From: an uncultured Ignavibacteriales bacterium
Lineage (GTDB): Bacteria; Zixibacteria; MSB-5A5; GN15; FEB-12
Reading direction: 5' to 3'
Assembly (NCBI GenBank): GCA_964464605.1
Contig: CAYXJN010000005.1
Coordinates: 301,184-321,183 of the forward strand
DNA length: 20,000 nt
Shown: piece after piece, positions 688-20,000 of the stretch
Layout: the number at the start of each line of letters is the position of its first letter
Numbering within the stretch: position 1 is the first letter of the stretch
The notes under the pieces: generated by a model
What the model was told of the DNA's origin: nothing
Seen by the model: the letters and a program-made list of their open reading frames with translations, nothing else
Databases searched by the model: none
Translations under genes and position numbers: made by a program

Positions 688-690
688 TGT

Positions 691-2835: not shown

Positions 2836-2838
2836 CCG

Positions 2839-3027
2839 ATGCTGCGTGAAGCTATACTGAATGTCGATAATATAGAAGTATTCGGCGCGATAGCGCTAGT
2901 TGTCATGCTTCTGGTTTTTGCCGGAGTTATTGTCTGGGTCGTCCGGCTCGACAAGCAGGTTATCGATACGCTCGGACGTTTGCCGCTTGATTCTGCAGCG
3001 AAAGGAGAGGAGGCCGACCGTGTCTGA
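2839..3027 (+). CDS. ccoQ: cbb3 oxidase small subunit CcoQ
   Basis: 62 aa, single TM helix followed by 'GRLPLD'. GGGAGG RBS upstream. Sits between ccoO and ccoP. Confidence 0.85.
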   Translation: MLREAILNVDNIEVFGAIALVVMLLVFAGVIVWVVRLDKQVIDTLGRLPLDSAAKGEEADRV

Positions 3028-3685: not shown

Positions 3686-3692
3686 ACGGAAT

Positions 3693-5084
3693 ATGAACGA
3701 TTCATTTCGGGATACGCTGGCGACCATCGATAAGCGAGGGAAACGGATGTGGGTTTATCCTACGCAACCGAAGGGAAAATACTACTCTATCCGGACTGTG
3801 CTTTCCTTTTTCCTGCTCGCATTTTTGTTCGGTGCGCCGTTTATCCGGGTGGATGGACATCCGTTTCTCCAGTTCGATATACTCAACCGGCATTTTTATA
3901 TTTTCGGATTGGTCTTCTGGCCGCAGGATCTCCATTTGTTCGTGCTGGCAGGCATAACTTTTTTCGTGTTTATCATTCTCTTTACCACCGTTTATGGCCG
4001 GTTGTTCTGCGGATGGATTTGCCCGCAGACGATTTTTCTTGAGATGGTATTCCGTAAAATCGAATACATCATTGAAGGAAACGGGCCAAGGCAGAAACAA
4101 CTTGATCATGCGGAATGGTCGCCGCAGAAACTGTTCAAAAAGAGCAGCAAGCTCATTATTTTTTATGCGATCGCGTTTCTTATCGGCAACACGTTTCTCG
4201 CTTACATTATAGGTATCGAGAGTCTCTGGGATATCGTTTCCTCGCCGCCAACGGAACATCTTACCGGTTTTATCGCCATGGTGATTTTTTCTTTTATCTT
4301 CTTCTGGGTATTCACCTGGTTTCGGGAGCAAGCCTGTACCCTTGTTTGTCCGTACGGGCGCCTGCAGGGGGTCTTGCTCGACAAAAACTCAATGGTGGTT
4401 ATGTATGATTTCAAACGGGGTGAGCCGCGCGGACCGGCCAAGCGCAATCAAACGCGTGTGGGTGGTGATTGTATCGAATGTGACGCCTGTGTGAGAGTAT
4501 GTCCGACCGGAATCGACATTCGTAACGGCATACAACTGGAGTGTGTTAACTGTACGGCATGTATGGATGCTTGCGACCGGACGATGGAGCGAATGAAATT
4601 TCCGACCGGCCTTATTCGTTATGCTTCGCAAGATCAGATTACCTACGGCGGATCGCGAAAAATAACACCGCGAATCATACTATATTCGACAATATTTCTT
4701 GTTCTTCTCGGAGTCACGTCGACGCTGCTGATTTTACGATCGGAAGTCGAAGCATCCATCCTGCGGACGACCGGGTCGCTCTATGAAGAATTGCCGGACG
4801 GGAACATCCGAAACCTCTATACTATTCGGGTGACGAACAAAACGTCAAAAGAACTGCCTGTCACGCTCAAGCTTGCCGGCAACCGCGGGACTATTGAACT
4901 GGTCGGACCGGAACTAACCGCCCCGCCCAACGGGCAGGACCAATCGGTTTTTACCATCGTTATTCCGAAAAAAAATCTTTTCACATCGAATACGCCGGTT
5001 GTTGTTGAATTGTATTCTCAGGATGAACTTCTGGAAACAGTTCCTACAACTTTCGACGGACCGATGCCGGGAAAATCAAAATGA
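3693..5084 (+). CDS. ccoG: Cytochrome c oxidase accessory protein CcoG/FixG (4Fe-4S membrane protein)
   Basis: Motifs GRLFCGWICPQT, CPYGRLQ, CIECDACVRVCPTGIDIR and CVNCTACMDAC, followed by a C-terminal beta-rich domain. Confidence 0.96.
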   Translation: MNDSFRDTLATIDKRGKRMWVYPTQPKGKYYSIRTVLSFFLLAFLFGAPFIRVDGHPFLQFDILNRHFYIFGLVFWPQDLHLFVLAGITFFVFIILFTTVYGRLFCGWICPQTIFLEMVFRKIEYIIEGNGPRQKQLDHAEWSPQKLFKKSSKLIIFYAIAFLIGNTFLAYIIGIESLWDIVSSPPTEHLTGFIAMVIFSFIFFWVFTWFREQACTLVCPYGRLQGVLLDKNSMVVMYDFKRGEPRGPAKRNQTRVGGDCIECDACVRVCPTGIDIRNGIQLECVNCTACMDACDRTMERMKFPTGLIRYASQDQITYGGSRKITPRIILYSTIFLVLLGVTSTLLILRSEVEASILRTTGSLYEELPDGNIRNLYTIRVTNKTSKELPVTLKLAGNRGTIELVGPELTAPPNGQDQSVFTIVIPKKNLFTSNTPVVVELYSQDELLETVPTTFDGPMPGKSK

Positions 5085-5560
5085 CTCAGCAAAAACCAAA
5101 AAGCCTGTGGGGGAAAGGGGTCTGGATAGCCTACGGCACTTTTGTATTGTTCATGCTCGGAATTGTTGCCTTTGCAGCGTACCAGCATTTTGATCTGGTC
5201 GAGCCGGATTATTACGAGAAAGGGCTTGAGTACCAGCATCGGCTTGATGGGTCTGCCAGAACCCGAACAGAGCAAAAGCAGCCCGTCATATCATTCACGT
5301 CTGACTTGAAGCAGATACAAATCTGCTTTCCGCACAGTGAGGCTGCCGATGTCATGAAAGGTACGATTTTGTTCTTTCGACCGTCGACTGCGGCTTACGA
5401 CATTCGTGATTCGCTTACTCTTGATGCAAGTGGCTGCCAGACGATAATGGATACACGGCTTATGCCGGGCTATTGGCGTGTCAAAATCGATTGGATAGAA
5501 AACAGTCAGCAATACTATTATGAGCAGCAGCTCTTTCTTGAAACGGAGCAGGGCAGATGA
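5081..5560 (+). CDS. ccoH: FixH/CcoH family protein
   Basis: N-terminal TM helix followed by 'DLVEPDYYEKGLEYQ', 'FFRPS' and 'GYWRVKIDW'. ATGA overlap with ccoG. Confidence 0.88.
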   Translation: MTQQKPKSLWGKGVWIAYGTFVLFMLGIVAFAAYQHFDLVEPDYYEKGLEYQHRLDGSARTRTEQKQPVISFTSDLKQIQICFPHSEAADVMKGTILFFRPSTAAYDIRDSLTLDASGCQTIMDTRLMPGYWRVKIDWIENSQQYYYEQQLFLETEQGR

Positions 5561-6285
5561 TGGAAGGTATGCTCTGGTCGGCGCTGTCATTGGGCTTTAT
5601 CGGTAGCCTGCACTGCGTATGCATGTGCGGACCGATTGCCGTTGCGTTGCCCAAACAGGCGAAGAATAAATTTACCTTCATCGTAAATCGCCTGATATAC
5701 AATGTGGGAAGAGTATTAACCTATGTCCTGTTAGGGAGTGTTTGCGGAGTCGTCGGTGGAATAATTGCGATGGCGGGATTTCAACAGGTCATGTCGATCG
5801 CTGCCGGAATAGCAATCATCGCAGCTTTATGCGTGCCGAAACTGACTCGGCTGCTCAATACTGATGCATCGATTCTCAAATTTGTAAATCGTGTTGGAGA
5901 TACGTGGCGGCGACTGTTTAACTCACCGCGCGCGCTTTCTTTTTTGGGGATAGGCGTTCTCAACGGATTCCTGCCGTGCGGTTTGTTGTACGTTGCTTTG
6001 GTAGCGGCAGCAACAAGCGCCGGAGCGGTTCAAGGTGCGGAATATATGCTGCTTTTTGGATTAGGCACGTTCCCGGCTATGCTGCTTATTTCCGTGATGG
6101 GCGGCTTGCTGCCGCTTTGGTTGCGCCGGACAGCATCGCGCGCCATTCCTGCCGGGGCCATGCTTTTGGCCGTATTGTTAGTGTTGCGGGGACTGTCATT
6201 GGGAATTCCGTATATAAGCCCGAATCTGAATGCATCGAAACCTGCGGGTGCATCACCGACTGCCGTGCATGATTGCTGCAAATAA
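5557..6285 (+). CDS. DsbD_2 / TauE-SafE-like membrane protein of cco operons (probable Cu/thiol assembly factor)
   Basis: Motifs 'GSLHCVCMCGP', 'YNVGR', 'NGFLPCGLLY' and 'FGLGT', about 6-7 TM helices and a C-terminal HDCC. Confidence 0.88.
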   Translation: MMEGMLWSALSLGFIGSLHCVCMCGPIAVALPKQAKNKFTFIVNRLIYNVGRVLTYVLLGSVCGVVGGIIAMAGFQQVMSIAAGIAIIAALCVPKLTRLLNTDASILKFVNRVGDTWRRLFNSPRALSFLGIGVLNGFLPCGLLYVALVAAATSAGAVQGAEYMLLFGLGTFPAMLLISVMGGLLPLWLRRTASRAIPAGAMLLAVLLVLRGLSLGIPYISPNLNASKPAGASPTAVHDCCK

Positions 6286-6376: not shown

Positions 6377-8503
6377 TTACCGTTTGACGTCGGTGAGGCC
6401 ATGTTTTTGAAGAAGAGAATAGAGCTGTCCTCGCGAAATCCCCAGCAGCTTTGCGGCTTTAGATTTATTCTCCTTCGCTTTTGCCATCGCTTTCACTAAC
6501 ATCTCCTTCTCAACCGTTTCAAGCGCAACTCCTTCAACCGGAAAATCTACAGAAGCGGGAGCGGCAGCGGCGATACGTGCTGATTGTGGTCGTGATACGG
6601 TGATTGGTAAATGTTCTCTTGTAACCAACCCACCCTGACAGAGAATCACCGCGCGCTCGATTGCATTGCGGAGTTCACGCACATTACCGGGCCAATTGTG
6701 TACTAACAATTGTTCTCGTGCGTCTTCTGATATACCTGCCGCAGGACGGCCGATACTTCTCCCAACCTCTTCTAAGAATGTTTCCGCAAACGTGAGTATA
6801 TCGTCCGGCCGCTCACGAAGCGGGGGGAGATGAATTTCAAATGTACAGAGCCGATAGTATAGATCTTCACGGAATGATCCATTTGCAATGGACGTGCGTG
6901 GGTCCCGGTTTGTTGCGGCAACAATTCGCACGTCTGCTTTAATCGTTCTCGCGCCGCCGACCCGGTTGAATTCCCGCTCCTGCAACACCCGCAGCAGTTT
7001 TGCCTGCATTGGTGGTGCCATCTCTCCGATTTCATCTAAGAAGAGCACACCTCCATTTGCCTGTTCGATTTTTCCGATTCGTGCTTCGACAGCACCCGTA
7101 AATGCACCCCGCTCATGCCCGAATAACTCCGATTCCAGCAGATGTTCCGAAATCGCCGCACAATTGAGTGCGATGAACGGCCCCTTTTCTCGTTTCGAAC
7201 CGCGATGAATATATCTGGCTATCACTTCTTTACCGGTTCCTGATTCTCCGGTGATGAGCACAGTTGTATCAGTTGCTGCTACCTGAGTGGCAAGGGCCAA
7301 AGCTTCCTTCCATGCTGGAGAACTGCCTATTGCCCGGTGTGCACTGTACCTGTCCAGCTCATGAGTAAGGACGGCAACCTTTTTCTCCAATTGCTGGGCG
7401 CGTTCTTCGGTGAGAGCAATCAGCCGTTCTTCATCTGCGAGTTTCTGGTGTGCGAGTGCGAGTGCGACAAGATCCGTGATACGGGAGGCGAGCATTCCAT
7501 CCTCTGCATCATATGCGTCAGGTTTACTTGACATGAATGCAATACCGCCGATCGGTTTGTCTTTGCTTCGGATAGGGACGCGCATAGTCGAGCGAATACC
7601 TGCCCGCGAAACGAAGTTTACCCAATTCTTACCGGGTCGCACAACCACTTCCACAGGTGGAGTCACATGCTTCGGGGAAATTCGCGCCTTGACCGACTCG
7701 GCATCTACCGGAGACAGATCATAGGCCAACAGAAATTGCCAGTTCGCGTCGAGCGCTTCCTGTTCGTTGCTAAATCGGTATTCCGGAAGCTCCATTACCC
7801 CCATAACTGTAGCCGCCTGAACCCGGACTCCGCCGCGATCGGGGCTGAGTAGAGCAAATGCAAGAACATCATGCGGAACGACTTCCTTAATCACTGTGGA
7901 CATCTGAACGAATACCTTTCGCACATCGAGCGATTGCGCAATGGTAGGCACCAGCGTTTCGAATTTCGCCCGCCTTCGCTGACGAATCTGTTCCTTTTCC
8001 CAGAGTTGCTCTCGTTCGGTTGCTATAGCTAAGTATTCCTTGATTGGTTCGAGCGCTCGCACATGCGTGTCGTTGAAATCATCTGCTTTATTGCTTGTCA
8101 TAATAAGCAGGCCGACCTCACCATGTTCAGTGGTGAGCGGTGCAAGCAGTAAAGACTGAGCGCCTGATTCTATCAACGTGCGATCCCCTTCGTAACTTCG
8201 GTCGAGTACCTCACTCGCATTCTTTATAATGTAGGTAGCTGCATTTGTGCGTGGCCAGAGTTTTTCAGAATACCGTCTGCGCAAGGTGGGAATAGGTTTA
8301 GGCTGTTCCGATGCTCCACGCTGTACCGTTACTGATTGAACCGCCGCTTCATCTTCGAGAAAAACAAGCTGGGCGTTGTCGTATGGAATCGATTTTTCGA
8401 GTGTCGATATCACACGAACAAAAAGCGTGACGAGACCCTCATACGATGGTTGTTCCTTCGATCCTTCTGTGCTAGTGTCGCTGGGTTTTGGGGGCGGAAA
8501 CAT
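6377..8503 (-). CDS. Sigma54-dependent transcriptional activator (GAF-GAF-AAA+-Fis-type HTH; NifA/FhlA-like architecture)
   Basis: Walker [24 protein letters not shown], Walker [18 protein letters not shown] and HTH '[17 protein letters not shown]'. Two GAF-like segments ('SLLLAPL...GLL...F', 'STMRVPI...GGI...Y'). No receiver domain. Confidence 0.95.
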
Positions 8504-8545
8504 GATGCGATTCTATCAGCCACCCATAGACTTTGTCAAGCTGCA

Positions 8546-8580
8546 TTGTCCATTTATGGACAACTGTCCAATCCCAGACA
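8546..8580. promoter_or_regulatory. Tandem upstream activator sequences (two TGT-N10-ACA boxes)
   Basis: TTGTCCAT-TT-ATGGACAA (8546-8563, perfect 8-bp arms) is followed by TGTCCAATCCCAGACA (8565-8580). They lie about 120-150 bp upstream of the predicted sigma54 start site. Confidence 0.75.
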
Positions 8581-8670
8581 CCTCAAACCACCAAACGGTC
8601 ATTTCCGGGCGCTCTCGTAAAACGCTACATCCCATAGACTTATAAACCTATTTCGGGTGCTCGAATGCGA

Positions 8671-8687
8671 TTGGCACACCGATCGCA
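8671..8687 (+). promoter_or_regulatory. Sigma54 (RpoN) -24/-12 promoter
   Basis: TTGGCAC-ACCGA-TCGCA versus consensus TGGCAC-N5-TTGCW. GG at 8673-74 and GC at 8685-86 have exact spacing. Adjacent to the divergent sigma54 activator. Confidence 0.85.
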
Positions 8688-8699
8688 ATACAAGTCGCC

Positions 8700-8969
8700 A
8701 TGCACAAGAACGTTGAAATACTGATCGGCCGACTGGCCACTGACCCGACGCTGCTCGAGCACTTTGCAAAGAATCCTCTCGCAGTTCTTCGCGAGCAAGG
8801 ACTCGAACTCAACGCGATCGAGTTGGATGCCTTAGCCGCCACCAGTCCCAAGGCGTTCAGTGCGCTCACCGCTGCGCTCGATGCTCGCATTTGTAAAGCA
8901 TCGATAGCGATCGAAAATCGGTCCAATCGCGGCATAACAACAACGGAATCGCAAAAAGATTCCAAGTAA
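8700..8969 (+). CDS. Small helical protein resembling the Os1348-type NHLP (nitrile hydratase leader peptide) clan
   Basis: 'VEILIGRLATDPTLLEHFAKNPLAVLREQGLELNAIELDAL' matches the NHLP-like pattern (I-x-R-x-x-x-D-x5-F-x-x-x-P-x3-L-x3-G-x-x-L). First gene after the sigma54 promoter. Family assignment is from recall. Confidence 0.7.
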   Translation: MHKNVEILIGRLATDPTLLEHFAKNPLAVLREQGLELNAIELDALAATSPKAFSALTAALDARICKASIAIENRSNRGITTTESQKDSK

Positions 8970-8981
8970 GGAGACGGTACA

Positions 8982-9779
8982 ATGAAACGCAGCAACACTC
9001 TTTCAGGCATGATGAAACGACGCGCCCTCTGCAGCGCGGCGTGCCTGGCCATGATTTTCATCACCAGCACGGCGAACGCAGCCGGATGGCATTTCTCATT
9101 CACACCTTACGCCTGGTTGACTGACATCAGTGTCGAAGGAAAGCTGGATGGGCGCACGGTTGTCGACGAAGAAATCTCGGTCGGTGATCTGATTGAGGAT
9201 CTCAAGACAACTTTTCAGGGAAGGTTTGAACTTCAGCATGGAGAATTCAGTGCGATGGTTGATCTGTTCGATGTCACGCTTGGCGATGAAGTTGCCGGCG
9301 TTGCGCTTCCGAACGGTGCCGGCAGCGCGGATCTCTCATCCGATATCGGCATGACACTGCTGGACATTGCCGCTACGTATGATCGCGGCGGTAACCATCA
9401 GGGGTTTTCGTTTCTTTATGGGACACGCCTGATCAACAATCGGTCTGAAATCGATGCGACTTTTCATCTTACTTCCGGTTCGGACGTTTCAGAAAGCTAC
9501 GATACAGATGAATGGCTCGCAGACATGCTCGTCGGAATGAGCTATACAAAGCGGTTCTCAAACCACTTTCTCTATCAGACAGAGGCTGATTTCTCGGTCG
9601 GGGGCACCGATTACACCTGGAGCCTCGGTCCGTCACTTACTTACGCTTTCGGTAAATACGGACGCTATGGCATCACTGCCGGGTATCGCCGGATGACAAT
9701 TAATTACGAGGAAGAAAACGACTTTGGTGCGCAAATGACGATGTCCGGCGCAGAGGTCAGTTTCCGCGCTTCATTCTAA
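8982..9779 (+). CDS. Outer-membrane beta-barrel protein of unknown function
   Basis: AAGGAG RBS and a signal peptide ending ANA-A. Mature start 'WHFSFTPYAW', alternating amphipathic strands, 'ITAGYR' and a C-terminal Phe (VSFRASF). Confidence 0.75.
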   Translation: MKRSNTLSGMMKRRALCSAACLAMIFITSTANAAGWHFSFTPYAWLTDISVEGKLDGRTVVDEEISVGDLIEDLKTTFQGRFELQHGEFSAMVDLFDVTLGDEVAGVALPNGAGSADLSSDIGMTLLDIAATYDRGGNHQGFSFLYGTRLINNRSEIDATFHLTSGSDVSESYDTDEWLADMLVGMSYTKRFSNHFLYQTEADFSVGGTDYTWSLGPSLTYAFGKYGRYGITAGYRRMTINYEEENDFGAQMTMSGAEVSFRASF

Positions 9780-9811
9780 CCGTGAGCAAGAATACAAAGG
9801 AGAATATAAGA

Positions 9812-10675
9812 ATGTCTGAGAAACTTATTAACCCCCGCCCAAACGCGTTAAATCGCATTGGGCGGGCAATTCTGAGGATGATTGGTGTGCATCCTTTCGA
9901 TACGGAAACGACAAGGTACGATCTTTGCAATAGCTCTGCGCTTTGCATCGCAACCAATCATGGTGTACTCGATATCGGTGTACCAACCGGCGTGTTCGGT
10001 TCGGAACTGACCGTACCATACTACTGCTTTCTCGATGCTGGAATGCAGGTCGATGTTGCCAGCCCTAAGGGTGGAATGATTCCCGTCGAACCGCTTTCAG
10101 TGAAAGAGATGCTTCGCACCGCAGAAGATGACCGGATGCTCGGCGATGACTTCTTCCGCGCAAAACTGACAAACTCACTCGCGATCGAAGCTGTCGACTT
10201 CACTGCCTACGATATTATCTATTTCGCAGGCGGTTGGGGTGCGGCCTTCGATCTCGGTCAATCTGAAATACTCGGTAAAAAAGTCAGTGAAGCGTTCGCG
10301 GCCGGACGGGTAATTGGCGGTATCTGTCACGGCCCGCTTGGCCTTTTGAAAGCCCGTCGCCCTGACGGTGAATTGCTCGTCAAAGGGCGCAGACTTACCG
10401 CTGTCACCGACCGCCAAGTGCAGCAGCTCGGTGTTTCGATCACGCCCCTGCATCCGGAATCGGCGCTTCGCGCTGCCGGCGCACAGTTCGAATGTAAACA
10501 CCACTCACTACGTGACTTTTTCGCGAATCACTTCGTCGTCGACGGCGACCTCATCACCGGCCAGAATCAAAATGCCGGACCGATGGTCGCTCGGTTGATG
10601 ATGAATCGTGTAATAGAAAAAAATCAATCCGTTCGCAGAGCAGATGTCTTTGCGGACCAAACAAAACTGTCATAA
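9812..10675 (+). CDS. DJ-1/PfpI (Hsp31-like, class I glutamine amidotransferase-like) protein
   Basis: 'GVFGSELTVPY' (catalytic Glu), 'VASPKGG', 'AGGWG', nucleophile elbow 'GICHGP' and 'ITGQN'. ATG 9812 follows AAGGAG, so it is preferred over GTG 9782. Confidence 0.88.
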   Translation: MSEKLINPRPNALNRIGRAILRMIGVHPFDTETTRYDLCNSSALCIATNHGVLDIGVPTGVFGSELTVPYYCFLDAGMQVDVASPKGGMIPVEPLSVKEMLRTAEDDRMLGDDFFRAKLTNSLAIEAVDFTAYDIIYFAGGWGAAFDLGQSEILGKKVSEAFAAGRVIGGICHGPLGLLKARRPDGELLVKGRRLTAVTDRQVQQLGVSITPLHPESALRAAGAQFECKHHSLRDFFANHFVVDGDLITGQNQNAGPMVARLMMNRVIEKNQSVRRADVFADQTKLS

Positions 10676-10711
10676 CACAAACGTATATTCTTGAAAGGAA
10701 AGAAAACGGTC

Positions 10712-12202
10712 ATGAAAACATTTAGCAGAATCCTCGTTTCGCTCGTCGCGATTACCTTCTTCGCAGTCGGGCTTGAATTTTGGATGGTTCCTGAGCAAGC
10801 AGCTCAACAGTTTGGAATCGAAGCAATCCGCGGCGTCGGCATTATGAATGTTCGCGCCGATCTGGGTGGTCTCTTTATCGGTATTGGCCTGTTGGCAGCG
10901 GCCGGCGCCTGGACTCGCCGTCGTGCGGGACTGGTAGCTGCTGCACTGATCCTCGGTGCAATTATTGTTGGCCGTACTGCCGGCTGGTTCATCGACGGCG
11001 AGATGGAAATCGGTGCCACTGAGCTGATTATTGAACTGCTAGCATTGGTTTCATTGATTCTGTTGGTAAAAAGTTTGGACGCCCCTTCCGCAAGTGAAGA
11101 GCATAGTGCACATCGCCCGCTCAAGATTGCGCTGAATACGCTTGCTGTCTTGGTCGTTGGCTCAGCGGTTGCCCTTCTGATTCCTTCGGTGCAGCAGGCA
11201 ATTTTCGACAAGGCCGCTGAGAAGATGTCTGCGCGAACTAATACTGCTCCACTTGTTGATGATGCGCTTCGCGTTGCAGTAGCCGGTTCTTCAGCGCCGC
11301 TTCCCAGCAAATCTCGCGCAAAGGCATCCGTTGTTGTCTTCGCTGGCGGGAAATTTTGGGTTGTAGATGCGGGTCCGGAATCTGTTGAGAATCTGGTTCT
11401 TTGGGGCATTCCGCTGTCTGAAATCGGGGGAGTACTGCTTACCCACTTTCATTCCGACCACATTGGTGATCTCGGTGAACTGCAGCTCCAGACCTGGGCT
11501 GGTGGTCGCAGGGAAAAACTTGCCGTCTATGGCGGTCCCGGTGTCGATCATGTTGTCGAAGGGTTCAACAGAGCCTACGATTTGGATCAGGGTTATCGCA
11601 CTGCCCATCACGGCGAAGAGGTGATGCCTTCTACGACCTGGGGAATGGTTGCGCACACCGTTACTCTTGATGGTCCCGCGACTCGGGCAAAGGATCGCAC
11701 TGCATTGGTTTATGATGACGGGTCACTTCGGATCACTGCAATCGAAGTTAACCATGCGCCGATCGAACCTGCTTATGCATTCCGTTTTGATTACAAAGGA
11801 CGTTCTGCTGTCATCACCGGAGATTTGACGTACCACCGGCCGCTTATTGCGAGTGCTATGAATGCGGATGTGCTCGTTTCAGAAGCGATCTCACGTACTA
11901 TGACACATTCACTCGAAGATGCTGCCCATGCGGTCGGCCGTGACCGTACGTCTGCGATCATGCATGATGTTCAGGACTACCATATCTCTCCTGAAGAGGC
12001 TGCGCAAATTGCGAATGACGCGGACGTCAAGCTGCTTGTGTACTATCACTTGCTTCCGGCTCCGGACGGTTTCCTTGCCCGCCGCTTGTTCTCTAACGGC
12101 GTCAATGATGTCAGAAAAGGGGACTGGACAATGGCCGAAGACGGCAGCCTCTACACCCTTCCACTCGGTTCGGATAACGTCCGCATCGGTCGCATTGAAT
12201 AA
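10712..12202 (+). CDS. Fusion of an N-terminal 4-TM DUF4345-like domain, a TM linker and an RNase Z/AtsA-type metallo-beta-lactamase-fold hydrolase
   Basis: MBL motifs 'VDAG', 'THFHSDHIGD', 'VNHAP', 'TGD', 'DYH' and 'YYHL'. The N-terminus has 'RADLGGLFIGIG' and 'GR...G' typical of DUF4345. ATG 10712 preferred over TTG 10691. Confidence 0.82.
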   Translation: MKTFSRILVSLVAITFFAVGLEFWMVPEQAAQQFGIEAIRGVGIMNVRADLGGLFIGIGLLAAAGAWTRRRAGLVAAALILGAIIVGRTAGWFIDGEMEIGATELIIELLALVSLILLVKSLDAPSASEEHSAHRPLKIALNTLAVLVVGSAVALLIPSVQQAIFDKAAEKMSARTNTAPLVDDALRVAVAGSSAPLPSKSRAKASVVVFAGGKFWVVDAGPESVENLVLWGIPLSEIGGVLLTHFHSDHIGDLGELQLQTWAGGRREKLAVYGGPGVDHVVEGFNRAYDLDQGYRTAHHGEEVMPSTTWGMVAHTVTLDGPATRAKDRTALVYDDGSLRITAIEVNHAPIEPAYAFRFDYKGRSAVITGDLTYHRPLIASAMNADVLVSEAISRTMTHSLEDAAHAVGRDRTSAIMHDVQDYHISPEEAAQIANDADVKLLVYYHLLPAPDGFLARRLFSNGVNDVRKGDWTMAEDGSLYTLPLGSDNVRIGRIE

Positions 12203-12556: not shown

Positions 12557-12578
12557 GATTGTGACAAGAGTAACAATC
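12557..12578. promoter_or_regulatory. CRP/Rex-like palindrome
   Basis: GATTGTGAC-AAGA-GTAACAATC has 8/9 arm symmetry. Its core TGTGA-N6-TAACA matches CRP TGTGA-N6-TCACA at 9/10. Confidence 0.35.
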
Positions 12579-12649: not shown

Positions 12650-12680
12650 GGTTTGGTATAACTTATAGTTATACCAAACC
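12650..12680. promoter_or_regulatory. Perfect 14-bp inverted repeat, probable operator
   Basis: GGTTTGGTATAACT-TAT-AGTTATACCAAACC lies in AT-rich intergenic DNA about 150 bp upstream of the cytochrome cluster. Confidence 0.55.
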
Positions 12681-12832: not shown

Positions 12833-13777
12833 ATGAGTATGGACCGTGCATCCGCAGTCAACATGCCCCAGTCATCTATGAGTGGTTCAACTAATGTGCA
12901 GAAACAGCGACAACATCGCTGGGTGTCATGGTGCATCTACCTGATTTCCATTTGCCTGCTCACTTGGTTATTTGTTGATGGAGCGTCATATTATTTGACT
13001 CCTTATAATGAACGGCCATTTCACCCGGACTATCGCGAACTTCGTCCGGCCGGGTCACGCGGACTTATGTTTGGAATAATCGGAGCGAGCATGATGGTAC
13101 TCATGCTTATTTATTCGGTCAGAAAACGGACGAAGGCACTTGGCGGCAAAATCCCGCTTCGGAGCATGCTCAATGTCCACATATACTGCGGGATCATAGG
13201 CCCGCTCTTTATTGTGCTGCATACATCGTTCAAAGTTCAGGGATTAGTTGCCGTCAGTTTCTGGTCCATGGTTGCGGTTGCCTTAAGCGGTTTCTTCGGT
13301 CGGTATCTTTATTCGCAGATTCCAAGAAACATCCAGGGAAATGAGCTTGGCCTGAAAGAAATCGAACAGGAAAGCACAGCGATGACGAAGACTCTTAAAA
13401 CTCGCTTCAATCTTGATGATCCGATCCTTCAACAGATAGAATCGATCTTCTCACGAGAGTTAATTCACACCCAGCGCGGCACCATCAGGTCTATCGTGAC
13501 TCTCATGTTCGATGATCTTATTCGACCATTCACGCGACGAAGTCTTTGGAGAAAGCTGCGAAGAATAATCATCTTACCCAAGTTGCAATTCCAGGATTTG
13601 TTTGAACTATCTTTCAAGCGGACGCTTTTGCGGAGGCGACTTGCCGCCCTGGCGAATGTTCAAAAGCTCTTTCACTACTGGCATGTTATCCATAAACCGT
13701 TCGCGATTATTATGTATCTCATTATGTTTGTGCATATCGGCGTTGCCTTATGGATGGGGTACGCTTGGTTCAACTGA
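12833..13777 (+). CDS. Inner-membrane protein with conserved-looking TM histidines (ferric-reductase/cytochrome b-like); start codon uncertain (12773-12878)
   Basis: About 5-6 hydrophobic segments, 'YSVRKR', and His in or near helices (NVHIYCG, VLHTSFK, YWHVIHKP, FVHIG). A basic soluble loop is present. First gene of the multihaem cluster. Confidence 0.72.
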   Translation: MSMDRASAVNMPQSSMSGSTNVQKQRQHRWVSWCIYLISICLLTWLFVDGASYYLTPYNERPFHPDYRELRPAGSRGLMFGIIGASMMVLMLIYSVRKRTKALGGKIPLRSMLNVHIYCGIIGPLFIVLHTSFKVQGLVAVSFWSMVAVALSGFFGRYLYSQIPRNIQGNELGLKEIEQESTAMTKTLKTRFNLDDPILQQIESIFSRELIHTQRGTIRSIVTLMFDDLIRPFTRRSLWRKLRRIIILPKLQFQDLFELSFKRTLLRRRLAALANVQKLFHYWHVIHKPFAIIMYLIMFVHIGVALWMGYAWFN

Positions 13778-13790
13778 ATACAGGTTCAAC

Positions 13791-15467
13791 ATGAACTTTC
13801 GGAATATCGGAGTTCTGGTCATGATGTTGCTTTTGTCTGAAGTAGCAGTCGTACAGGCACAACTCTCGCCGGGTGAATTGCACAAATCGCATGCCTTTCT
13901 GGACGGCGTTGAGAATTGTACTAAGTGCCATGGCACCGATCAAAAATTGGTAGCAGACAATTGCCTCAAATGCCATGCGACTATCGGCGAAGAGCTTGTA
14001 TCTCAAACCGGGCTGCATGGAAAACAGCAATATAAAGACTGTCAGCTCTGTCATGTCGAGCATCATGGGCGCGACTTTGCTCTGATTCACTGGAAAGAAG
14101 GGGAATTGAATTTTGATCACTCGCTTACCGGCTATAGGCTGGAAGGGAAGCATGCATCAATTGATTGCCGATCCTGTCATCAAAAGAAGCTCCTTGTTGC
14201 GGCGTCGAAGCTGTTAGAACAAAAAATCACTCTCGCAAAAACCTTTCTGGGCTTGAGCAACGAATGCAAGAACTGCCACTTTGATGAACATCGCGGACAA
14301 TTGAATGAAACCTGCGGCAACTGCCATTCAAGTGATGACTGGAAACCGACGAAAGGGTTTGATCATGCAAAGACAGTATTTCCATTGGTCGGAAAGCATG
14401 CAGATGTTTTCTGCGCAAAGTGCCATCTCACGCAATCGGATGGTTCAACATCAGATGACGGGCAGTTCGCTAAATTCACTAAAATAGCGCATGATCAGTG
14501 CACCGACTGCCATACCGACGTACACAACGGAAAGCTCGGAGCAAACTGCATGAATTGCCACAGTGTGGATGGCTGGCATGTTGCCAACCGAGCCGAATTC
14601 GATCATAGCAAAACGAGATATCCGCTTAACGGAAAACATGCGGCGGTTGCTTGCGATAAATGCCATATCCCGGGAAAAGAGCGAGGGAAACTGAAGTTTG
14701 AAAAATGTCAGGATTGCCACGCCGATTTTCACAAGGGAGAGTTTGCCTCAAGAAATTCAAAAGGAGCCTGTGAGGAATGCCACACGGTCGGCGGATTTTC
14801 TCCTTCACTGTTTACCATTGCGCTGCATGAGGAGAGCAAGTATCCGTTGCGTGGCGCACATCAGGCCGTTCCCTGCATAGCTTGCCATGTTGAGCCGACC
14901 AAGGGAACACAAAAGAAAAATCTTCATTTCGAATTTGCATCGACACAGTGCTTCGCTTGTCACAAAGACCCGCACCGGGGAGAAGTTACTAAATATGTCG
15001 ATGAAAGCGGATGCGAGTTCTGTCACAGCGTAGATAGCTGGCAGCTTATTAACTTTGCTCATGGCATAACAAAGTTTGGGCTTGAGGGTAAGCATGCTGA
15101 TGTCTCCTGTAGAAAATGCCATACCTCTGACATGAATGGCCTGTCACAACTAACTTTTGTAAGCGCGCTGGAGGATTGTCAGAGTTGTCATACCGATACT
15201 CATGCCGGACAGTTCGCTTCCAACGATGTGGGAGGCGCTGATTGTCAGCGATGCCATTCACCGAGATCATGGAAACAACTTACGTTTGAACATAACCGCG
15301 ATTCCAAATTCAAACTTGAAGGGGCGCATCAGAAGGTCCCATGTACTAAGTGCCATACGCAAAGAACAGAACAAGAACCTCGGACTATAGTATACAAACC
15401 GCTTGCGATAACCTGCGCTTCCTGCCATGGAACCAATAACCTCATGGACAAAGAGAAGGAATCATGA
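13791..15467 (+). CDS. Secreted multihaem cytochrome c, 20 CxxCH (558 aa)
   Basis: Signal peptide MNFRNIGVLVMMLLLSEVAVVQA-Q. 20 CxxCH counted by hand, in trihaem repeats FDH-x4-(F/Y)xLxGxH-x4-CxxCH...CxxCH-xDxHxG...CxxCH. Start ATG 13791, not 13602. Confidence 0.93.
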   Translation: MNFRNIGVLVMMLLLSEVAVVQAQLSPGELHKSHAFLDGVENCTKCHGTDQKLVADNCLKCHATIGEELVSQTGLHGKQQYKDCQLCHVEHHGRDFALIHWKEGELNFDHSLTGYRLEGKHASIDCRSCHQKKLLVAASKLLEQKITLAKTFLGLSNECKNCHFDEHRGQLNETCGNCHSSDDWKPTKGFDHAKTVFPLVGKHADVFCAKCHLTQSDGSTSDDGQFAKFTKIAHDQCTDCHTDVHNGKLGANCMNCHSVDGWHVANRAEFDHSKTRYPLNGKHAAVACDKCHIPGKERGKLKFEKCQDCHADFHKGEFASRNSKGACEECHTVGGFSPSLFTIALHEESKYPLRGAHQAVPCIACHVEPTKGTQKKNLHFEFASTQCFACHKDPHRGEVTKYVDESGCEFCHSVDSWQLINFAHGITKFGLEGKHADVSCRKCHTSDMNGLSQLTFVSALEDCQSCHTDTHAGQFASNDVGGADCQRCHSPRSWKQLTFEHNRDSKFKLEGAHQKVPCTKCHTQRTEQEPRTIVYKPLAITCASCHGTNNLMDKEKES

Positions 15468-16927
15468 GAAAGTTACTTTTGTTCATTCCAGTGATGATGC
15501 TTGTCGGTACCGGCGTTATTCTCAGTCAGTCGTCAACGACCAACCCGCATGGCAATCTGAAATGGGATTGTCAGGACTGCCATACGTCGGAATCATGGTC
15601 GTCATTGCGAAAGTATATAGCGTTTGATCATGACGAAACCGGATTTCATCTGACCGGAGCTCATGAAACGGCGAATTGCATCGGCTGTCACAAGAGTCTC
15701 GAATTCAGCCATGTCGGTGTTGCCTGTGTCGATTGTCATACTGATCAACATGAGGGACAACTTGGTCTCGCCTGTCAGAACTGCCATACTCCCCGGAATT
15801 GGGAGAACCGGAAAGACATATTGGAACTACATGCACAGAAGGGTTTCGCGTTGACTGGAGTGCATGCCGTCGCCGATTGCGAGTCATGTCATCGTGGAAG
15901 CTCGAGTCAGGATTATGCCGGAACGCCGATGAATTGCATCGACTGTCATACCACCGAATTTACCGCTACTACCAATCCGAGCCACACTCTCGCCGGATTT
16001 CAAACTGATTGTCAGCAGTGTCATCATACGGCTTCAGGAACATGGCAAAATGCAACATACGCTCATACCGCTCTATTCCCATTGACAGGTGGTCACCGTA
16101 TCACCGACTGTAATTCCTGTCATGCTACAACCTATGCCGGTATAGCCACTGATTGCTACGCTTGTCATAGTTCGGAGTTCGCAGCTACCAGCGATCCGGA
16201 TCATGAACAGGGAGGCTTCGATCATGATTGTGCGCTCTGCCACAATACAAACCGATGGGAACCGGCAAACTTTGACCACAGCGTGAGCGGTTTCCCGTTA
16301 ACTGGTCGTCACGTTTCAGTTTCCTGTAATTCCTGTCACGCTTCCGGTTATACAGGAACGCCATCGGATTGCTATGCTTGTCATCAATCCGACTTTCAGA
16401 ATGCTTCTGATCCGAACCATGTGCAGGCAAACTTTGATCAGGACTGCACAAGTTGTCACTCTACGAATGGCTGGACGCCATCCTCGTTCGAACATAACAA
16501 CACAAGCTTTCCGCTCACAGGCCGGCATGTGACTGCTTCCTGTATATCCTGCCATGCATTTGGCTACTCCGGAACGCAGTCAGCTTGTTTCGCCTGCCAT
16601 CAGTCTGATTACGACGGCACCACTGATCCGAATCATGTCTCTGCTAATTTCCCGAATGATTGCCTGAGTTGCCACACAACATCAGGCTGGACGCCTTCGA
16701 CTTGGGATCATGATGCACAATACTTTCCAATTTATTCAGGCACACACAGAAATGAGTGGAACGATTGTTCCGACTGTCATGTGCAGCCTGCAAATTATGC
16801 AGTTTTCGAATGTATTGATTGCCACCAGCATTCACGAACTGAAACGGACAATCATCACAATGAGGTTAACAACTACCAGTATCTAAGTACCGCTTGCTAT
16901 AGCTGTCATCCGAGAGGTACCCACTGA
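15464..16927 (+). CDS. Secreted multihaem cytochrome c, 19 CxxCH (487 aa)
   Basis: Signal peptide MRKLLLFIPVMMLVGTGVILS-Q. 19 CxxCH counted by hand, in the same repeat family as the upstream gene. ATGA overlap with the upstream cytochrome. Confidence 0.94.
   Translation: MRKLLLFIPVMMLVGTGVILSQSSTTNPHGNLKWDCQDCHTSESWSSLRKYIAFDHDETGFHLTGAHETANCIGCHKSLEFSHVGVACVDCHTDQHEGQLGLACQNCHTPRNWENRKDILELHAQKGFALTGVHAVADCESCHRGSSSQDYAGTPMNCIDCHTTEFTATTNPSHTLAGFQTDCQQCHHTASGTWQNATYAHTALFPLTGGHRITDCNSCHATTYAGIATDCYACHSSEFAATSDPDHEQGGFDHDCALCHNTNRWEPANFDHSVSGFPLTGRHVSVSCNSCHASGYTGTPSDCYACHQSDFQNASDPNHVQANFDQDCTSCHSTNGWTPSSFEHNNTSFPLTGRHVTASCISCHAFGYSGTQSACFACHQSDYDGTTDPNHVSANFPNDCLSCHTTSGWTPSTWDHDAQYFPIYSGTHRNEWNDCSDCHVQPANYAVFECIDCHQHSRTETDNHHNEVNNYQYLSTACYSCHPRGTH
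16058..16702 (+). repeat. Intragenic tandem repeats of the trihaem unit (213, 216 and 216 bp)
   Basis: Units start at 16058 (YAH), 16271 (FDH) and 16487 (FEH), and the next starts at 16703 (WDH). They share FPLTGxH, CxSCH, CxACH, DPxH and a Trp. Confidence 0.85.
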
Positions 16928-18543
16928 TGCGCAAGGTACGTTTCCTGTTTCTCTTGGCCTCTCTGACACTTTTCGTCGGTGCAAACTCTTTTGGTGGATC
17001 GACCTTTGTGATAAAATACATTTCAGCAGAGAATGTTTATCTCAACGGCGGTAAAGCGGATGGCCTTAAGGTTGGTGACCGACTTACTGTAGGCTGCGGC
17101 GTGGACTGTTCGTGTGAGTTAGAAATAGTCTTTGTAGCGGATCATTCTGCTTCCTGCAAGATGTTGACACAACCTTGCGATCTTATTGCAGGGGATAAAG
17201 CAATGTTATCATACTCTGTTCCAGCAGATACGGTGGCTCTACCAGTCATTTCAGTAGATTCAGCCCTGCCTCCGAAAACTGCTCCTGAACGAGCGCTGTC
17301 GTCAATTAGCTATGCAGATCAACCGATTGCGCATTTGTCCGGCAGCATGTTCTTACAGTATTACACGATCGACGATCGGAATTCTTCAAATCTTGATTTC
17401 TCGCAATTGACCGGGCGGCTTTCAATGAAAGCGCGCCATCTCTTTGGACAGCCGTTGACTTTAGGGATACGAACACGCGGAAGGTATGACCAGCGCCAAC
17501 GGGAATTTGGGGAGGTGCCGCAGAAAGGTTGGGTGAACCGGGTTTGGGAATTATCGCTCAGTTATGATGATCCCCGTTCGCGAATCAGTTTCCAGGCCGG
17601 AAGAATATCACCTCGTCGAATCGGAAGCGCCGGTTATCTCGATGGAGCACTCTTGGAGACACGAGTTACCGAGAATTTTAGGATCGGATTTTTCGGCGGT
17701 ATCGAACCGAAGTGGGCGTATGCGGATGGTGTATTATCGATGAACAAGACCGGTGCATATGTTACGGTTCTAAGAGGGGAACCGGGCAAAGCATACCTTG
17801 AACAAAGTATTGCCGGCGTTGGAGAGTATTTTGCCGGAACGGTCAGCAGAGAGCTTCTCATATCACAGGGAAGAATACAAACAGGAAATCGGTGGAGCCT
17901 GTTTCACACAATCGAATTTGATATTAACCGGAGTTGGCGCAAAGACAAGACCGACAAGTCGCTCTCTCTTTCGAGTCTCTACATGGTCAGCTATTATAGA
18001 TTCAGTTCGGCCATTCGTTTTGGTCTTAGCTATGATAATCGCACCAATTACTGGACGCTTGAAACGAGATCATTGGTCGATAGCATATTCGACGACCGCC
18101 TTCGGCAGGGGGCTCGCGCACAGCTCGATCTCAGACTTCCCCTGCGTGTGCAAACATCCTATTCTTTTGGATTTCGCGAACGGGAGGGTGATTCTGATCC
18201 TACCCTCACTCATTCTGTCTATGTTAACCGGTCAGGACTTATTCGAAGAACAATCACCGCAAGTGTTCAATGGAGTTCGTTTGACGGCCCGTTTGAACAG
18301 GGGAGGAATTATTCGGCGCAGGTTGGTGACTACTTGCTGCCTCAGGTATATGCGTCAGTGTCGTATGGCGGCTATGAGTATGGTCTTACGACTGAAAATG
18401 TCTGGCGTCGAAATCACAGGATTTCATTATCAACACAGGTCGATTTTGCTCGTCGCTATTCTCTCAGCGGCTCAATCGAATTCGACAATGGGGATGATCT
18501 GAAGGGAACGCGATTCTTAACCGAGCTTGGCTATCGGTTCTAA
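16927..18543 (+). CDS. Large outer-membrane beta-barrel (putative cytochrome-associated porin) with an N-terminal FlgT_C-like beta domain
   Basis: Signal peptide, then 'VYLNGGKADGLKVGDRLTV...LEIVFV...SASC', then a Pro/Ala linker. About 400 aa of amphipathic strands follow ('GRI...GYLDGA'), ending in the BAM-type 'ELGYRF'. TGATG overlap with the cytochrome. Confidence 0.8.
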   Translation: MRKVRFLFLLASLTLFVGANSFGGSTFVIKYISAENVYLNGGKADGLKVGDRLTVGCGVDCSCELEIVFVADHSASCKMLTQPCDLIAGDKAMLSYSVPADTVALPVISVDSALPPKTAPERALSSISYADQPIAHLSGSMFLQYYTIDDRNSSNLDFSQLTGRLSMKARHLFGQPLTLGIRTRGRYDQRQREFGEVPQKGWVNRVWELSLSYDDPRSRISFQAGRISPRRIGSAGYLDGALLETRVTENFRIGFFGGIEPKWAYADGVLSMNKTGAYVTVLRGEPGKAYLEQSIAGVGEYFAGTVSRELLISQGRIQTGNRWSLFHTIEFDINRSWRKDKTDKSLSLSSLYMVSYYRFSSAIRFGLSYDNRTNYWTLETRSLVDSIFDDRLRQGARAQLDLRLPLRVQTSYSFGFREREGDSDPTLTHSVYVNRSGLIRRTITASVQWSSFDGPFEQGRNYSAQVGDYLLPQVYASVSYGGYEYGLTTENVWRRNHRISLSTQVDFARRYSLSGSIEFDNGDDLKGTRFLTELGYRF

Positions 18544-18569
18544 GAATTCCTGTACAAACAGAAAAGCAT

Positions 18570-19904
18570 ATGGAACAATTACTCATCTGGATAGCGGTCG
18601 CGATTGTCATTCTTATCATAATCATCCCGTATTTTTTTCAGTTTCGAAAGCAGCAGAAAGTTGTCGCTGAGCGAAAGAAGGAAGCTCAGGCAATGGGGTT
18701 CGATCGTCCCCGCGCGCAATATCCAATGGTTGACCGTGCTGTTTGCATCGGTTGCGGTGCCTGCGTGGAAGCATGTCCGGAAGGGGACGTGCTTGGGGTA
18801 GTATGGGGTATTGCCGAAGTTATCAATGGGGAGCGTTGTGTTGGCCATGGCCACTGCGAAAAAGCATGTCCGGTTGGTGCGCTAAAAGTCGGTCTGGGTG
18901 ATATAACCAGCCGTCCGGATATCCCGATGCTTAACAGCAGCTATGAAACAAATGTGCCTGGATTGTTTATCGTCGGCGAGCTTGGTGGTATCTCACTCAT
19001 ACGGAACGCTATTTCACAAGGCCAAACAGCAGTCGAAGCAATTGCTTCTCGTTGCCGAGGCAACTCCAATGAATCAATCACTGATGTCATGGTTGTCGGC
19101 GCTGGGCCAGCGGGCCTTTCCGCTGCTCTTACTGCTATTCAACACAAGCTCTCATATGTCTTCATTGATGAACGTGAAGTTGGCGGTGCGATTCTGCACT
19201 ATCCGAGAAAGAAGCTGGTGATGACCCAGCCGGTGCAGATTCCATTGTATGGATGGTTTCGGGAAACTGAGTATTCGAAGGAGTATCTCATGGAAACATG
19301 GGACACAATTATTAGGCAATTCGGAATCAAGATACGCACGAATGAAAGACTCGAAACAATCCAACAGTTGGGAGATCTGTTTGAAGTGCATACTTCAAAT
19401 GGCGTCTATATGTCGAGACATGTCGTTCTCGCTTTAGGTCGGAGAGGTACACCCCGAAAATTGGAAGTGCCGGGAGAGGAATCTTCAAAGGTTCTGTACA
19501 CTCTGATAGATACTCGCTCGTATCAGGGGAAACAGATGCTTGTCGTGGGAGGAGGCGATAGCGCTGTTGAAGCAGCCGTCGGTCTTGCAAAACAGAAGGG
19601 AAATACCGTCACGATTTCATATCGTAAGAACAGTTTCTTCCGGGTAAAGAAAAAAAATGAAGACGCAATCAATAAGTTCATCGCTGAAGGGAAAGTTGTC
19701 CCGATTTTTGATTCGCAGGTCACAGAAATTCGTGAGAGATGTGTTGCTTTAGAAACAAAACAAGGGATTCAGGAAATCCCCAACGACTTTGTACTCGTGC
19801 AAATTGGTGGTATTCCACCGTTCGAGCTCTTGCGAAGTATGGGTATTGCTTTTGGCGGCGAAAGTCGCAGCTTGCACGAACAGGCCCTACCGTTGCTGAC
19901 ATAA
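18570..19904 (+). CDS. Membrane-anchored ferredoxin + FAD/NAD(P)H oxidoreductase (TrxB/FNR/YpdA-like fold, no CxxC in the flavin part)
   Basis: N-terminal TM helix, CIGCGACVEACP, CVGHGHCEKACP, ETNVPGLFIVGE, VVGAGPAG, ALGRRG, VVGGGDSA and YRK. Confidence 0.88.
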   Translation: MEQLLIWIAVAIVILIIIIPYFFQFRKQQKVVAERKKEAQAMGFDRPRAQYPMVDRAVCIGCGACVEACPEGDVLGVVWGIAEVINGERCVGHGHCEKACPVGALKVGLGDITSRPDIPMLNSSYETNVPGLFIVGELGGISLIRNAISQGQTAVEAIASRCRGNSNESITDVMVVGAGPAGLSAALTAIQHKLSYVFIDEREVGGAILHYPRKKLVMTQPVQIPLYGWFRETEYSKEYLMETWDTIIRQFGIKIRTNERLETIQQLGDLFEVHTSNGVYMSRHVVLALGRRGTPRKLEVPGEESSKVLYTLIDTRSYQGKQMLVVGGGDSAVEAAVGLAKQKGNTVTISYRKNSFFRVKKKNEDAINKFIAEGKVVPIFDSQVTEIRERCVALETKQGIQEIPNDFVLVQIGGIPPFELLRSMGIAFGGESRSLHEQALPLLT

Positions 19905-19946: not shown

Positions 19947-20000
19947 CTCCCGAGGCAGGACTCGAACCTGCGACCCGCTGATTAACAGTCAGCTGCTCTA
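19947..20000 (-). tRNA. tRNA-Asn(GTT), 5' part cut off by window end; CCA not encoded
   Basis: Minus strand reads TAGAGCA-GCTGA-CT-GTT-AA-TCAGC-GGGTC-GCAGG-TTCGAGT-CCTGC-CTCGGGA-G, followed by CAA. Anticodon is at 19984-19986. Confidence 0.96.

Follow-up and report, generated by a model that had tools for sequence, protein, structure and literature searches.

The window analysed in this study, a stretch of 20,000 nucleotides that is the end of a contig in a 2.8-Mb genome, carries a five-gene cassette (g1-g5) whose proteins have their best named homologues in Ca. Zixiibacteriota, to which the host probably belongs. We propose, with a probability of about 0.5, that this cassette is a non-proteobacterial conduit of the PCC3 type combined with a dedicated cytoplasmic electron source, which would send electrons from NADPH outward, to the cell surface. 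As a genetic unit the cassette is real and conserved, which is well supported by the comparisons presented below, while its function is inferred from the predicted proteins. The genes (with product lengths in amino acids, aa) are as follows.

g1, 12833-13777, + strand: PCC3-type inner-membrane protein (IMP), 314 aa
g2, 13791-15467, + strand: secreted cytochrome c, 558 aa, 20 CxxCH motifs
g3, 15464-16927, + strand: secreted repeat cytochrome, 487 aa, 19 CxxCH motifs
g4, 16927-18543, + strand: outer-membrane beta-barrel, 538 aa, ending YRF
g5, 18570-19904, + strand: membrane-anchored ferredoxin/FAD-NADPH flavoenzyme, 444 aa

The sequence-only reading, made from the DNA letters without searches, had described five tightly packed, co-oriented open reading frames (ORFs), and their coordinates, strand, gaps (13 and 26 bp) and overlaps (ATGA and TGATG) were all found, as were the 39 CxxCH motifs that it ascribed to two secreted cytochromes (20 in g2 and 19 in g3) and the C-terminal YRF of the 538-aa barrel g4.

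Genes g1-g4 very probably form a cluster of the PCC3 family in which the porin is shorter and the second cytochrome has diverged, and this assignment is based on the signature of the IMP, the orthology of g2, the homology of the porin and correspondences with loci of Amphritea (L069) and of the Gallionellaceae (L071). PCC3 was predicted from proteobacterial genomes by He, Barco, Emerson and Roden in 2017 (PMC5566968) as a four-gene cluster with a link to quinones, whose IMP was proposed to be a quinone-active cytochrome b, and it is also covered by a survey of the Gallionellaceae (PMC9900912). The 63- and 21-haem proteins of the L069 locus agree with the numbers given for the Amphritea PCC3 (PMC5566968), and the gene order IMP-g2-g3-porin is that of Slit_1446-1449. 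The resemblance to PCC3-type clusters, suspected earlier, is thus a real homology (IMP signature, g2 and porin). The idea of a separate architecture was not supported: the cassette belongs to PCC3 and the flavoenzyme also accompanies classical proteobacterial PCC3.

The IMP of PCC3 and PCC4 was described as a protein of about 300 aa with five transmembrane helices (TM1-TM5), carrying SGxxG on TM4 and WX3HX13H on both TM3 and TM5, and was likened to the ferric reductase domain (FRD) (PMC5566968). Protein g1 agrees with this definition in its size, its five hydrophobic helices (the model is all-helical, with pLDDT of 90.5), SGxxG on TM4 (S152-G153-G156) and two HX13H pairs, H116/H130 on TM3 and H287/H301 on TM5. 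In homologues from many phyla H116, H130, H287, H301, G153, G156 and W283 are invariant (67 of 67 sequences); the TM3 tryptophan of WX3HX13H is Met in g1 and Trp in 59 of the 67. The label "His-rich", given to g1 from its sequence, was not borne out, as the protein has only 9 histidines in 314 residues and the relevant ones are the four invariant residues. A basic RKR loop lies between TM2 and TM3 (R97 is invariant), and a helical insert of about 120 residues is assigned to the cytoplasm. The K/R content of the N-terminus (21%), loop 2 (38%) and loop 4 (17%), compared with that of loop 1 (10%), loop 3 (13%) and the C-terminus (4%), would place the N-terminus inside, the basic loop in the cytoplasm and one histidine pair near each membrane face. 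Protein g1 is a predicted transmembrane di-haem b carrier. Foldseek returned nothing at E <= 0.001 for the g1 model, and a wide structural search was dominated by generic helical hairpins, with no FRD, NOX or MsrQ chain among the 50 matches listed. The sole full-bundle cytochrome among these was the superoxide oxidase CybB (5oc0; rmsd 3.4 over 133 residues, with a Z of 7.2 that is not significant), an enzyme that uses quinone; the ESM Atlas provided leads only.

Protein g2 has an N-terminal hydrophobic segment, 20 CxxCH motifs and 46 histidines, and is similar to the 21/24-haem proteins of L069, L071 and L077 (30-33% identity, ~540-600 aa, E 2e-57 to 7e-71); g2-like proteins have mostly 20-24 haem motifs. 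By these comparisons it is an orthologue of the PCC3 periplasmic cytochrome, in a location that is predicted. Protein g3 (19 CxxCH, 45 histidines), predicted to be secreted, is built of three-haem repeats and is rich in T, S, A and G (34%) and acidic (K+R 18 vs D+E 50). It occupies the gene position of the PCC3 "extracellular" cytochrome, at which the relatives have proteins of highly variable length with 10-63 haem motifs; it matches the periplasmic (g2) type (E 7e-38 to 2e-51) more strongly than the proteobacterial extracellular type. With 27.9 (g2) and 25.6 (g3) residues per haem, both proteins lie within the PCC3 range of 22-39. The earlier statement that these are not decahaem cytochromes of the MtrA/MtrC type was upheld by the haem numbers (20 and 19) and by the score for TIGR03508 (decahaem MtrA/DmsE type), which was 46 bits against a cut-off of 192.

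The AlphaFold2 model of g4 (pLDDT 87.5) contains a barrel of 22 strands (a hand count from the DSSP list) without a plug domain, together with a small beta domain at the N-terminus and a linker of low confidence. Protein g4 matched none of the families in Pfam or NCBIfam, and the ESM Atlas gave unnamed clusters only. The best structural matches were barrels of TonB-receptor size (Z 17-20, rmsd 4-5 A, ~330-360 residues), MtrB being at rank 33 among the barrels (Z 14.3), and these searches barely covered the N-terminal beta domain. Comparison of the family profile of g4 with a profile of 10 proteobacterial PCC3 porins (hhalign 97.5%, E 5.3e-12, 378 columns) indicates that g4 is a homologue of PCC3 porins. 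A stretch of the L071 porin (743 aa) resembles, by eye, a peptide of Slit_0867 (744 aa) of Sideroxydans ES-1.

Protein g5 consists of one N-terminal hydrophobic helix (residues 4-22), a K/R-rich stretch, two Fer4 motifs and a Pyr_redox domain, and the helix and K/R bias support the cytoplasmic location that had been suggested for its catalytic part; a Tat-like motif was found in none of the 69 g5-family sequences. The cluster ligands C59, C65, C69, C90, H93, C96 and C100 are invariant in these 69 sequences, and C62 is Cys in 52 and S, A, T or G in 17; one Fe-S cluster is probably ligated by a histidine, and in some members the other could be of the 3Fe type. Among solved structures, those of YpdA/Bdr (7a7b, E 4e-25), thioredoxin reductases (TrxR) and TrxR-like ferredoxin-NADP+ reductases (FNRs) are closest, and the match stops short of their C-terminal segment. 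This segment corresponds to residues ~107-166 of g5, ahead of the FAD motif (11 of 11 weak PDB matches, to TrxR, FNR, GltD and E3 chains), and the same swapped order was seen against the TrxR-like and FNR-like proteins of the host. As the C-terminal segment of the FAD domain sits before the N-terminal one, g5 is, judged by these alignments, a circularly permuted TrxR/FNR-like enzyme. It has the pattern of TrxR-like FNRs, i.e. GxGxxG for FAD (G177/G179/G182), GGGDSA (G327-A332) and basic NADPH residues, and CxxC is absent from the NADPH domain (0/69). The basic residues R352 (69/69), R358 (66/69) and K360 (64/69), which we take to be an NADPH phosphate-binding pattern, would point to NADPH specificity. 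Scores for TIGR04018 (YpdA/Bdr, the best NCBIfam match; 171.6, E 1.8e-50) and TIGR01292 (thioredoxin reductase; 92.6) were below the respective cut-offs of 339.9 and 343.

In GTDB, the association of g5 with the conduit was surveyed in the best 80 of at least 559 confirmed stretches with a g5 alignment (L025 among them duplicates L010), which come from Acidobacteriota, Planctomycetota, Gemmatimonadota, Calditrichota, Ignavibacteriota, Marinimicrobia, Myxococcota, Proteobacteria and others. The IMP is present in 70 of these loci, the porin in 60, two large cytochromes in 52 and all five gene types in 45; among the loci of at least 20 kb, 35 of 39 hold all five, which argues against a chance association and confirms the five-gene synteny on which the sequence-only reading had made its case depend. 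The position of g5 varies (last, first, second or divergent) and the linkage is kept. Among 40 relatives, a g1 match was found in 14. All 11 strong ones have g5 nearby, as the last or the first gene and between unrelated flanking genes, with a full porin in 8, a fragment in one and two loci cut by contig ends; the three weak ones belong to another module. In 101 genomes of the Gallionellaceae family, 48 have IMP and g5, none has the IMP alone, 2 have g5 alone and 51 have neither, and the two genes are no more than 2.5 kb apart in 46 of the 48 and no more than 8 kb apart in 47. The corresponding numbers for 121 genomes of the host phylum are 38 with both, none with the IMP alone and 3 with g5 alone, 33 pairs being within 10 kb and 5 on different contigs. 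The IMP was thus found without g5 in none of the 86 genomes (48 and 38, respectively). From 21 metagenome loci found with the porin, 17 contain g5 and the other 4 are short contigs.

In-frame fusions of g5 with g1 were identified in 11 sequences (10 of the 80 GTDB loci and P0289). A quick tree of 92 domains requires three changes, two of them forced by well-supported branches (P0289 is on a long branch), which suggests at least two origins of the fusion. The linker contains no extra TM helix, which puts g5 on the side of the IMP N-terminus, i.e. in the cytoplasm, judging by the K/R bias. More distant IMPs are fused to or flanked by cyclic nucleotide (cNMP)-binding/Fe-S proteins or FAD and 2Fe-2S oxidoreductases, and a cytoplasmic Fe-S or flavin partner would therefore be a general trait of the IMP family. 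We are highly confident that g5 is a dedicated partner of the PCC3 conduit. The suggestion that NAD(P)H is coupled directly to extracellular electron transfer, put forward earlier from the presence of g5, is strengthened by the strict co-occurrence and the natural fusions, and stays a prediction.

The association was also seen in cultured hosts. On a plasmid of Emticicia oligotrophica (Bacteroidota) the order is ccsA-IMP-g5-23 haem-40 haem-porin. In Sideroxydans ES-1, Slit_0866, an FAD pyridine-nucleotide oxidoreductase of 430 aa, adjoins the PCC3 porin Slit_0867 (PMC12016527). Its five peptides agree with the L071 family member at 8/8, 10/11, 5/7, 8/9 and 8/14 positions and with g5 at 5/8, 8/11, 4/7, 4/9 and 6/14 (two host controls, 3-5). 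The second ES-1 PCC3 cluster is without such a neighbour, Slit_1445 and Slit_1450 being other enzymes, and Slit_0525 (431 aa, annotated as Slit_0866 is, with one non-unique peptide; PMC12016527) may be a paralogue of Slit_0866.

Several variants of these gene sets were also observed. A second module with a distant IMP (L012:5885-18038, L013, L014, P0192-P0294) comprises a cNMP-binding/Fe-S protein, the IMP, a 10-haem cytochrome, FHA proteins, a Pyr_redox-FHA-2Fe-2S protein and a kinase-like ORF, and looks like a redox input to signalling; its Fe-S protein is fused to the IMP in about 100 proteins, the named ones being largely myxobacterial. A plasmid module (L016:5943-9430, L017:6073-9427), placed among heavy-metal genes, has an FAD or 2Fe-2S oxidoreductase, an IMP and a 7-haem cytochrome, and lacks a porin; 56 plasmid records match g1 weakly. 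At several proteobacterial loci (e.g. L046:11289-13367 and L090:11293-13353) g5 is followed by an overlapping gene for a secreted Sel1/ankyrin-repeat protein, a possible sixth component that is absent from the cassette in the window. In genome G030 (L003:4159-4832) only short fragments of the second cytochrome and of the porin remain between g2 and g5, which are intact; this is either a deletion or a misassembly. Some loci (L031, L133, L134, L035) have two IMPs or a second multihaem cluster beside the cassette.

In the proposed path, g5 would oxidise NADPH at its FAD and hand on the electrons one at a time, via its two Fe-S clusters, to the g1 haem on the cytoplasmic side; the two b haems of g1 would carry them across the inner membrane, as in ferric reductases and NADPH oxidases. 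The 20 haems of g2 would bridge the periplasm, from which g3 (19 haems) and the g4 barrel would together lead to the cell surface, where Fe(III) or Mn minerals, humics, other cells or possibly O2 would act as acceptors; quinones would be bypassed. This function, both of the g1-g5 module and of the whole wire, is predicted from gene content, motifs, PCC3 homology, co-occurrence, fusion and topology bias, with putative cofactors and putative contacts between all the proteins, and we hold a direct, quinone-free outward path at even odds. A complex prediction of g1 and g5 with haems and Fe-S clusters, run without controls, gave a score of 0.01 (mark 0.32) and is evidence neither way.

The flow is most likely outward. 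Outward flow from NADPH runs downhill across an inside-negative membrane at the expense of the membrane potential, which would fit redox balancing or metal mobilisation better than respiration. The potential of NADP+ is ~-320 mV and its reduction by inward flow would need a donor of ~-450 mV or lower, for which dissolved Fe(II) is insufficient; on thermodynamic grounds, an extracellular reductase is therefore more likely than Fe(II) uptake. This agrees with the down-regulation of both PCC3 clusters of ES-1 on Fe(II) in comparison with thiosulfate (PMC8788666).

A number of observations weigh against this proposal. The match of g1 to PF01794 is below the gathering score (17.5 bits, cut-off 28, E 0.004). 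Protein g3 resembles the second cytochromes of Proteobacteria only weakly (E 7e-11 to 3e-16), and it lacks a lipobox, its export and surface exposure being predicted only. The IMP and g5 are far apart in one of the 48 Gallionellaceae genomes, and the 86 genomes with both are related, i.e. they are not independent samples, hence no p-value is given. For autotrophs, spending membrane potential in this way is expensive. In Sideroxydans CL21, cells capable of iron oxidation have a raised level of the IMP of one PCC3 copy (10.1101/2025.02.27.639646), and late in growth Slit_0866 is more abundant on magnetite than on Fe-citrate (q 0.018 and 0.0027, with only 4 unique peptides; PMC12016527), both of which would fit inward flow as well.

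An inward direction, in which low-potential donors (Fe(0), reduced minerals, cathodes or partner cells) would feed g4, g3, g2 and g1 and finally NADP+ or ferredoxin at g5, has an analogue in the Desulfovibrio Tmc/Hmc complexes. TrxR-like FNRs are reversible, and IMP with g5 is common in the iron-oxidising Gallionellaceae (48/101), in accordance with the CL21 and magnetite data; even so, we consider this direction decidedly unlikely, since NADP+ reduction would have to oppose the membrane potential with such a strong donor (by textbook values), ES-1 lowers its PCC3 on Fe(II), and both the replacement of C62 (17/69) and the His ligand hint at higher-potential clusters suited to outward flow. Only a little less unlikely is a quinone-linked hub, in which g1 would be a quinone-reactive cytochrome b, the wire would trade with menaquinone and g5 would be a side entry (NAD(P)H:quinone via g1). 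It agrees with the proposal of He et al. (PMC5566968) and with the non-significant match of the g1 model to CybB, but such a hub would not need an obligate flavoenzyme, yet the IMP is always accompanied by g5 (86/86 genomes) and fusions of the two exist; moreover, the haem ligands of g1 lie at both membrane faces.

Two further explanations would take g5 out of the wire. It is improbable that g5 and g1 send NADPH electrons to the periplasm in order to keep haem iron or apocytochrome thiols reduced during the attachment of 40-80 haems and that, at the same time, other quinol dehydrogenases (NrfH, ACIII) supply the completed wire. The ccsA gene that opens the Emticicia operon, the ccm genes after a related oxidoreductase-IMP-cytochrome module in Methylophaga, the CcmF-like ORFs that flank several proteobacterial loci and the NrfH-like and ActA-like cytochromes of the host (the last two sets labelled by eye) are in favour of such a maturation role; the same oxidoreductase-IMP pairing with small 7-haem cytochromes, where the maturation load is low, the separate PF01578 maturation genes of the host and the lack of a thioredoxin-like periplasmic gene in the cassette argue against it. 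It is very improbable that g5 is a co-regulated, YpdA/Bdr-like reductase of low-molecular-weight disulfides outside the electron path: although YpdA/Bdr provide its best NCBIfam and PDB matches, the score is about half of the cut-off, and g5 is membrane-anchored, carries a ferredoxin domain, is circularly permuted and, in 11 proteins, is fused to the IMP. Outward flow from NADPH through g5 remains the preferred reading for this cassette. Its generalisation, according to which PCC3 would be an NADPH-oxidase/ferric-reductase-like machine with a 40-80-haem wire, quinone-independent and potential-spending, occurring in more than a dozen phyla, with a permuted flavoenzyme and a His-ligated Fe-S exit cluster, rather than a quinone-linked system for Fe(II) uptake, falls somewhat short of even odds.

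In Gallionellaceae and Leptothrix, PCC3 has been cited as a candidate iron oxidase. With an obligate NADPH-type flavoenzyme as partner, its predicted electron source changes and so, on thermodynamic grounds, does its likely direction; the published (quinone) source would be overturned. If this is true, PCC3 would be unfit as a marker of iron oxidation, many Acidobacteriota, Bacteroidota, Planctomycetota, Zixibacteria and Proteobacteria would possess an unrecognised means of extracellular reduction, and Gram-negative bacteria would have a route of extracellular electron transfer without an equivalent of CymA, ImcH or CbcL. Two proteins in liposomes, or a single-chain fusion, would suffice to test the electron source.

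The cassette is single-copy in the host genome, which has only seven ORFs with at least two CxxCH motifs; two matches to PF01578 (cytochrome c maturation) and two to secretins are located elsewhere in it. A perfect 14-bp inverted repeat with a 3-nt spacer (12650-12680), a possible operator or hairpin, lies ~150 bp upstream of g1; no copy was found in 26 upstream regions of relatives, and one copy with 3 mismatches occurs elsewhere in the genome. An imperfect palindrome (12557-12578), also upstream of g1, resembles Rex and CRP boxes. The host has a PF06971 gene, but the Rex-like box shows no enrichment in relatives (7 of 27 regions, with 5.5 expected), and Rex control is not claimed. Promoter and terminator scans gave no excess over shuffles (9 vs 10.8 and 9 vs 7.6, respectively). 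In one RNA run 0.05 of words matched, giving two short contigs, at the g2/g3 junction and inside g3, which demonstrate neither transcription nor a single transcript. The 3' part of a tRNA gene (19947-20000, - strand, anticodon GTT, Asn), cut by the contig end, abuts the cassette. In view of this tRNA gene, the patchy distribution (38 of 121 phylum genomes) and neighbours that differ in each relative, the cassette may move between genomes.

The window contains two other gene clusters. At 2-6285 there is a cbb3-type oxidase cluster (the end of a P-type ATPase for heavy metals, a ccoN-ccoO fusion, a weak match to ccoP, ccoG and two unassigned ORFs), which is not linked to the cassette in relatives. 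At 6377-12202, a sigma-54 activator with GAF domains is divergent from an operon encoding an Os1348-family small protein of the NHLP clan (above cut-off), a small protein that resembles a beta-barrel, a DJ-1/PfpI protein and a fusion of a membrane protein with an RNase Z-like metallo-beta-lactamase fold.

In full-text searches, which do not cover most subscription papers, no paper was found that treats the flavoenzyme as a PCC3 component or describes the five-gene form. "FAD" is absent from the main text of PMC5566968, whose Fig. 6 or Tables 3-5 could still show an oxidoreductase, and the main text of 10.1101/2025.02.27.639646, apart from its supplements, has no mention of an oxidoreductase, ferredoxin, thioredoxin, NADH or ferric reductase. 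One cluster reported from Lentimicrobium, which has cytochromes with 61 and 20 haems and is described as "lacking synteny" to known modules (PMC13013709), may be of the present type. The large-cytochrome operon of SEEP-SRB1 (PMC5539420) and the Pcc of Deferribacter (PMC13186404) were considered and are different systems.

Compared with MtrCAB, MtoAB, PioAB and the Geobacter Pcc, the cassette likewise has a porin and multihaem cytochromes crossing the outer membrane, but it has no decahaem protein and no gene of the CymA/ImcH/CbcL type. PCC4 subgroup II, compared by its description in PMC5566968, shares the His motifs of the IMP and has an Fe-S gene upstream of it, the two being annotated as a single gene in one genome; it differs in an IMP family regarded as separate by the authors, in three periplasmic cytochromes and in the lack of an extracellular one. 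YpdA/Bdr and the TrxR-like FNRs have the same FAD and NADPH Rossmann motifs as g5 and also lack CxxC, whereas g5 adds a membrane anchor, a built-in ferredoxin and the circular permutation. Members of the FRD superfamily (FRE, NOX, SpNOX, YedZ/MsrQ) resemble g1 in their two HX13H pairs, located on TM3 and TM5, and in their FAD/NADPH partner on the cytoplasmic side, and the cassette would work like them if the model is right; FRE/NOX enzymes carry cytosolic NADPH electrons outward (PMC3591440). They differ in that g1 is below the PF01794 cut-off and lacks the C-terminal FNR-type domain of FRE/NOX, in place of which there is a permuted TrxR-like protein with two Fe-S clusters, separate or N-terminally fused, and in that the output is a c-haem wire with a barrel. 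With published PCC3 the cassette shares the homologous IMP, the ~21-haem periplasmic cytochrome (26-28 residues per haem here), the porin and the gene order; it differs in a shorter g4 (538 aa vs ~570-910 aa) with another N-terminal region, in a g3 nearer to the periplasmic type and in a fifth, obligate flavoenzyme gene in the operon, as opposed to four proteobacterial, quinone-linked genes. The core is therefore of a known, predicted kind, and the new element is the obligate, sometimes fused, circularly permuted flavoenzyme.

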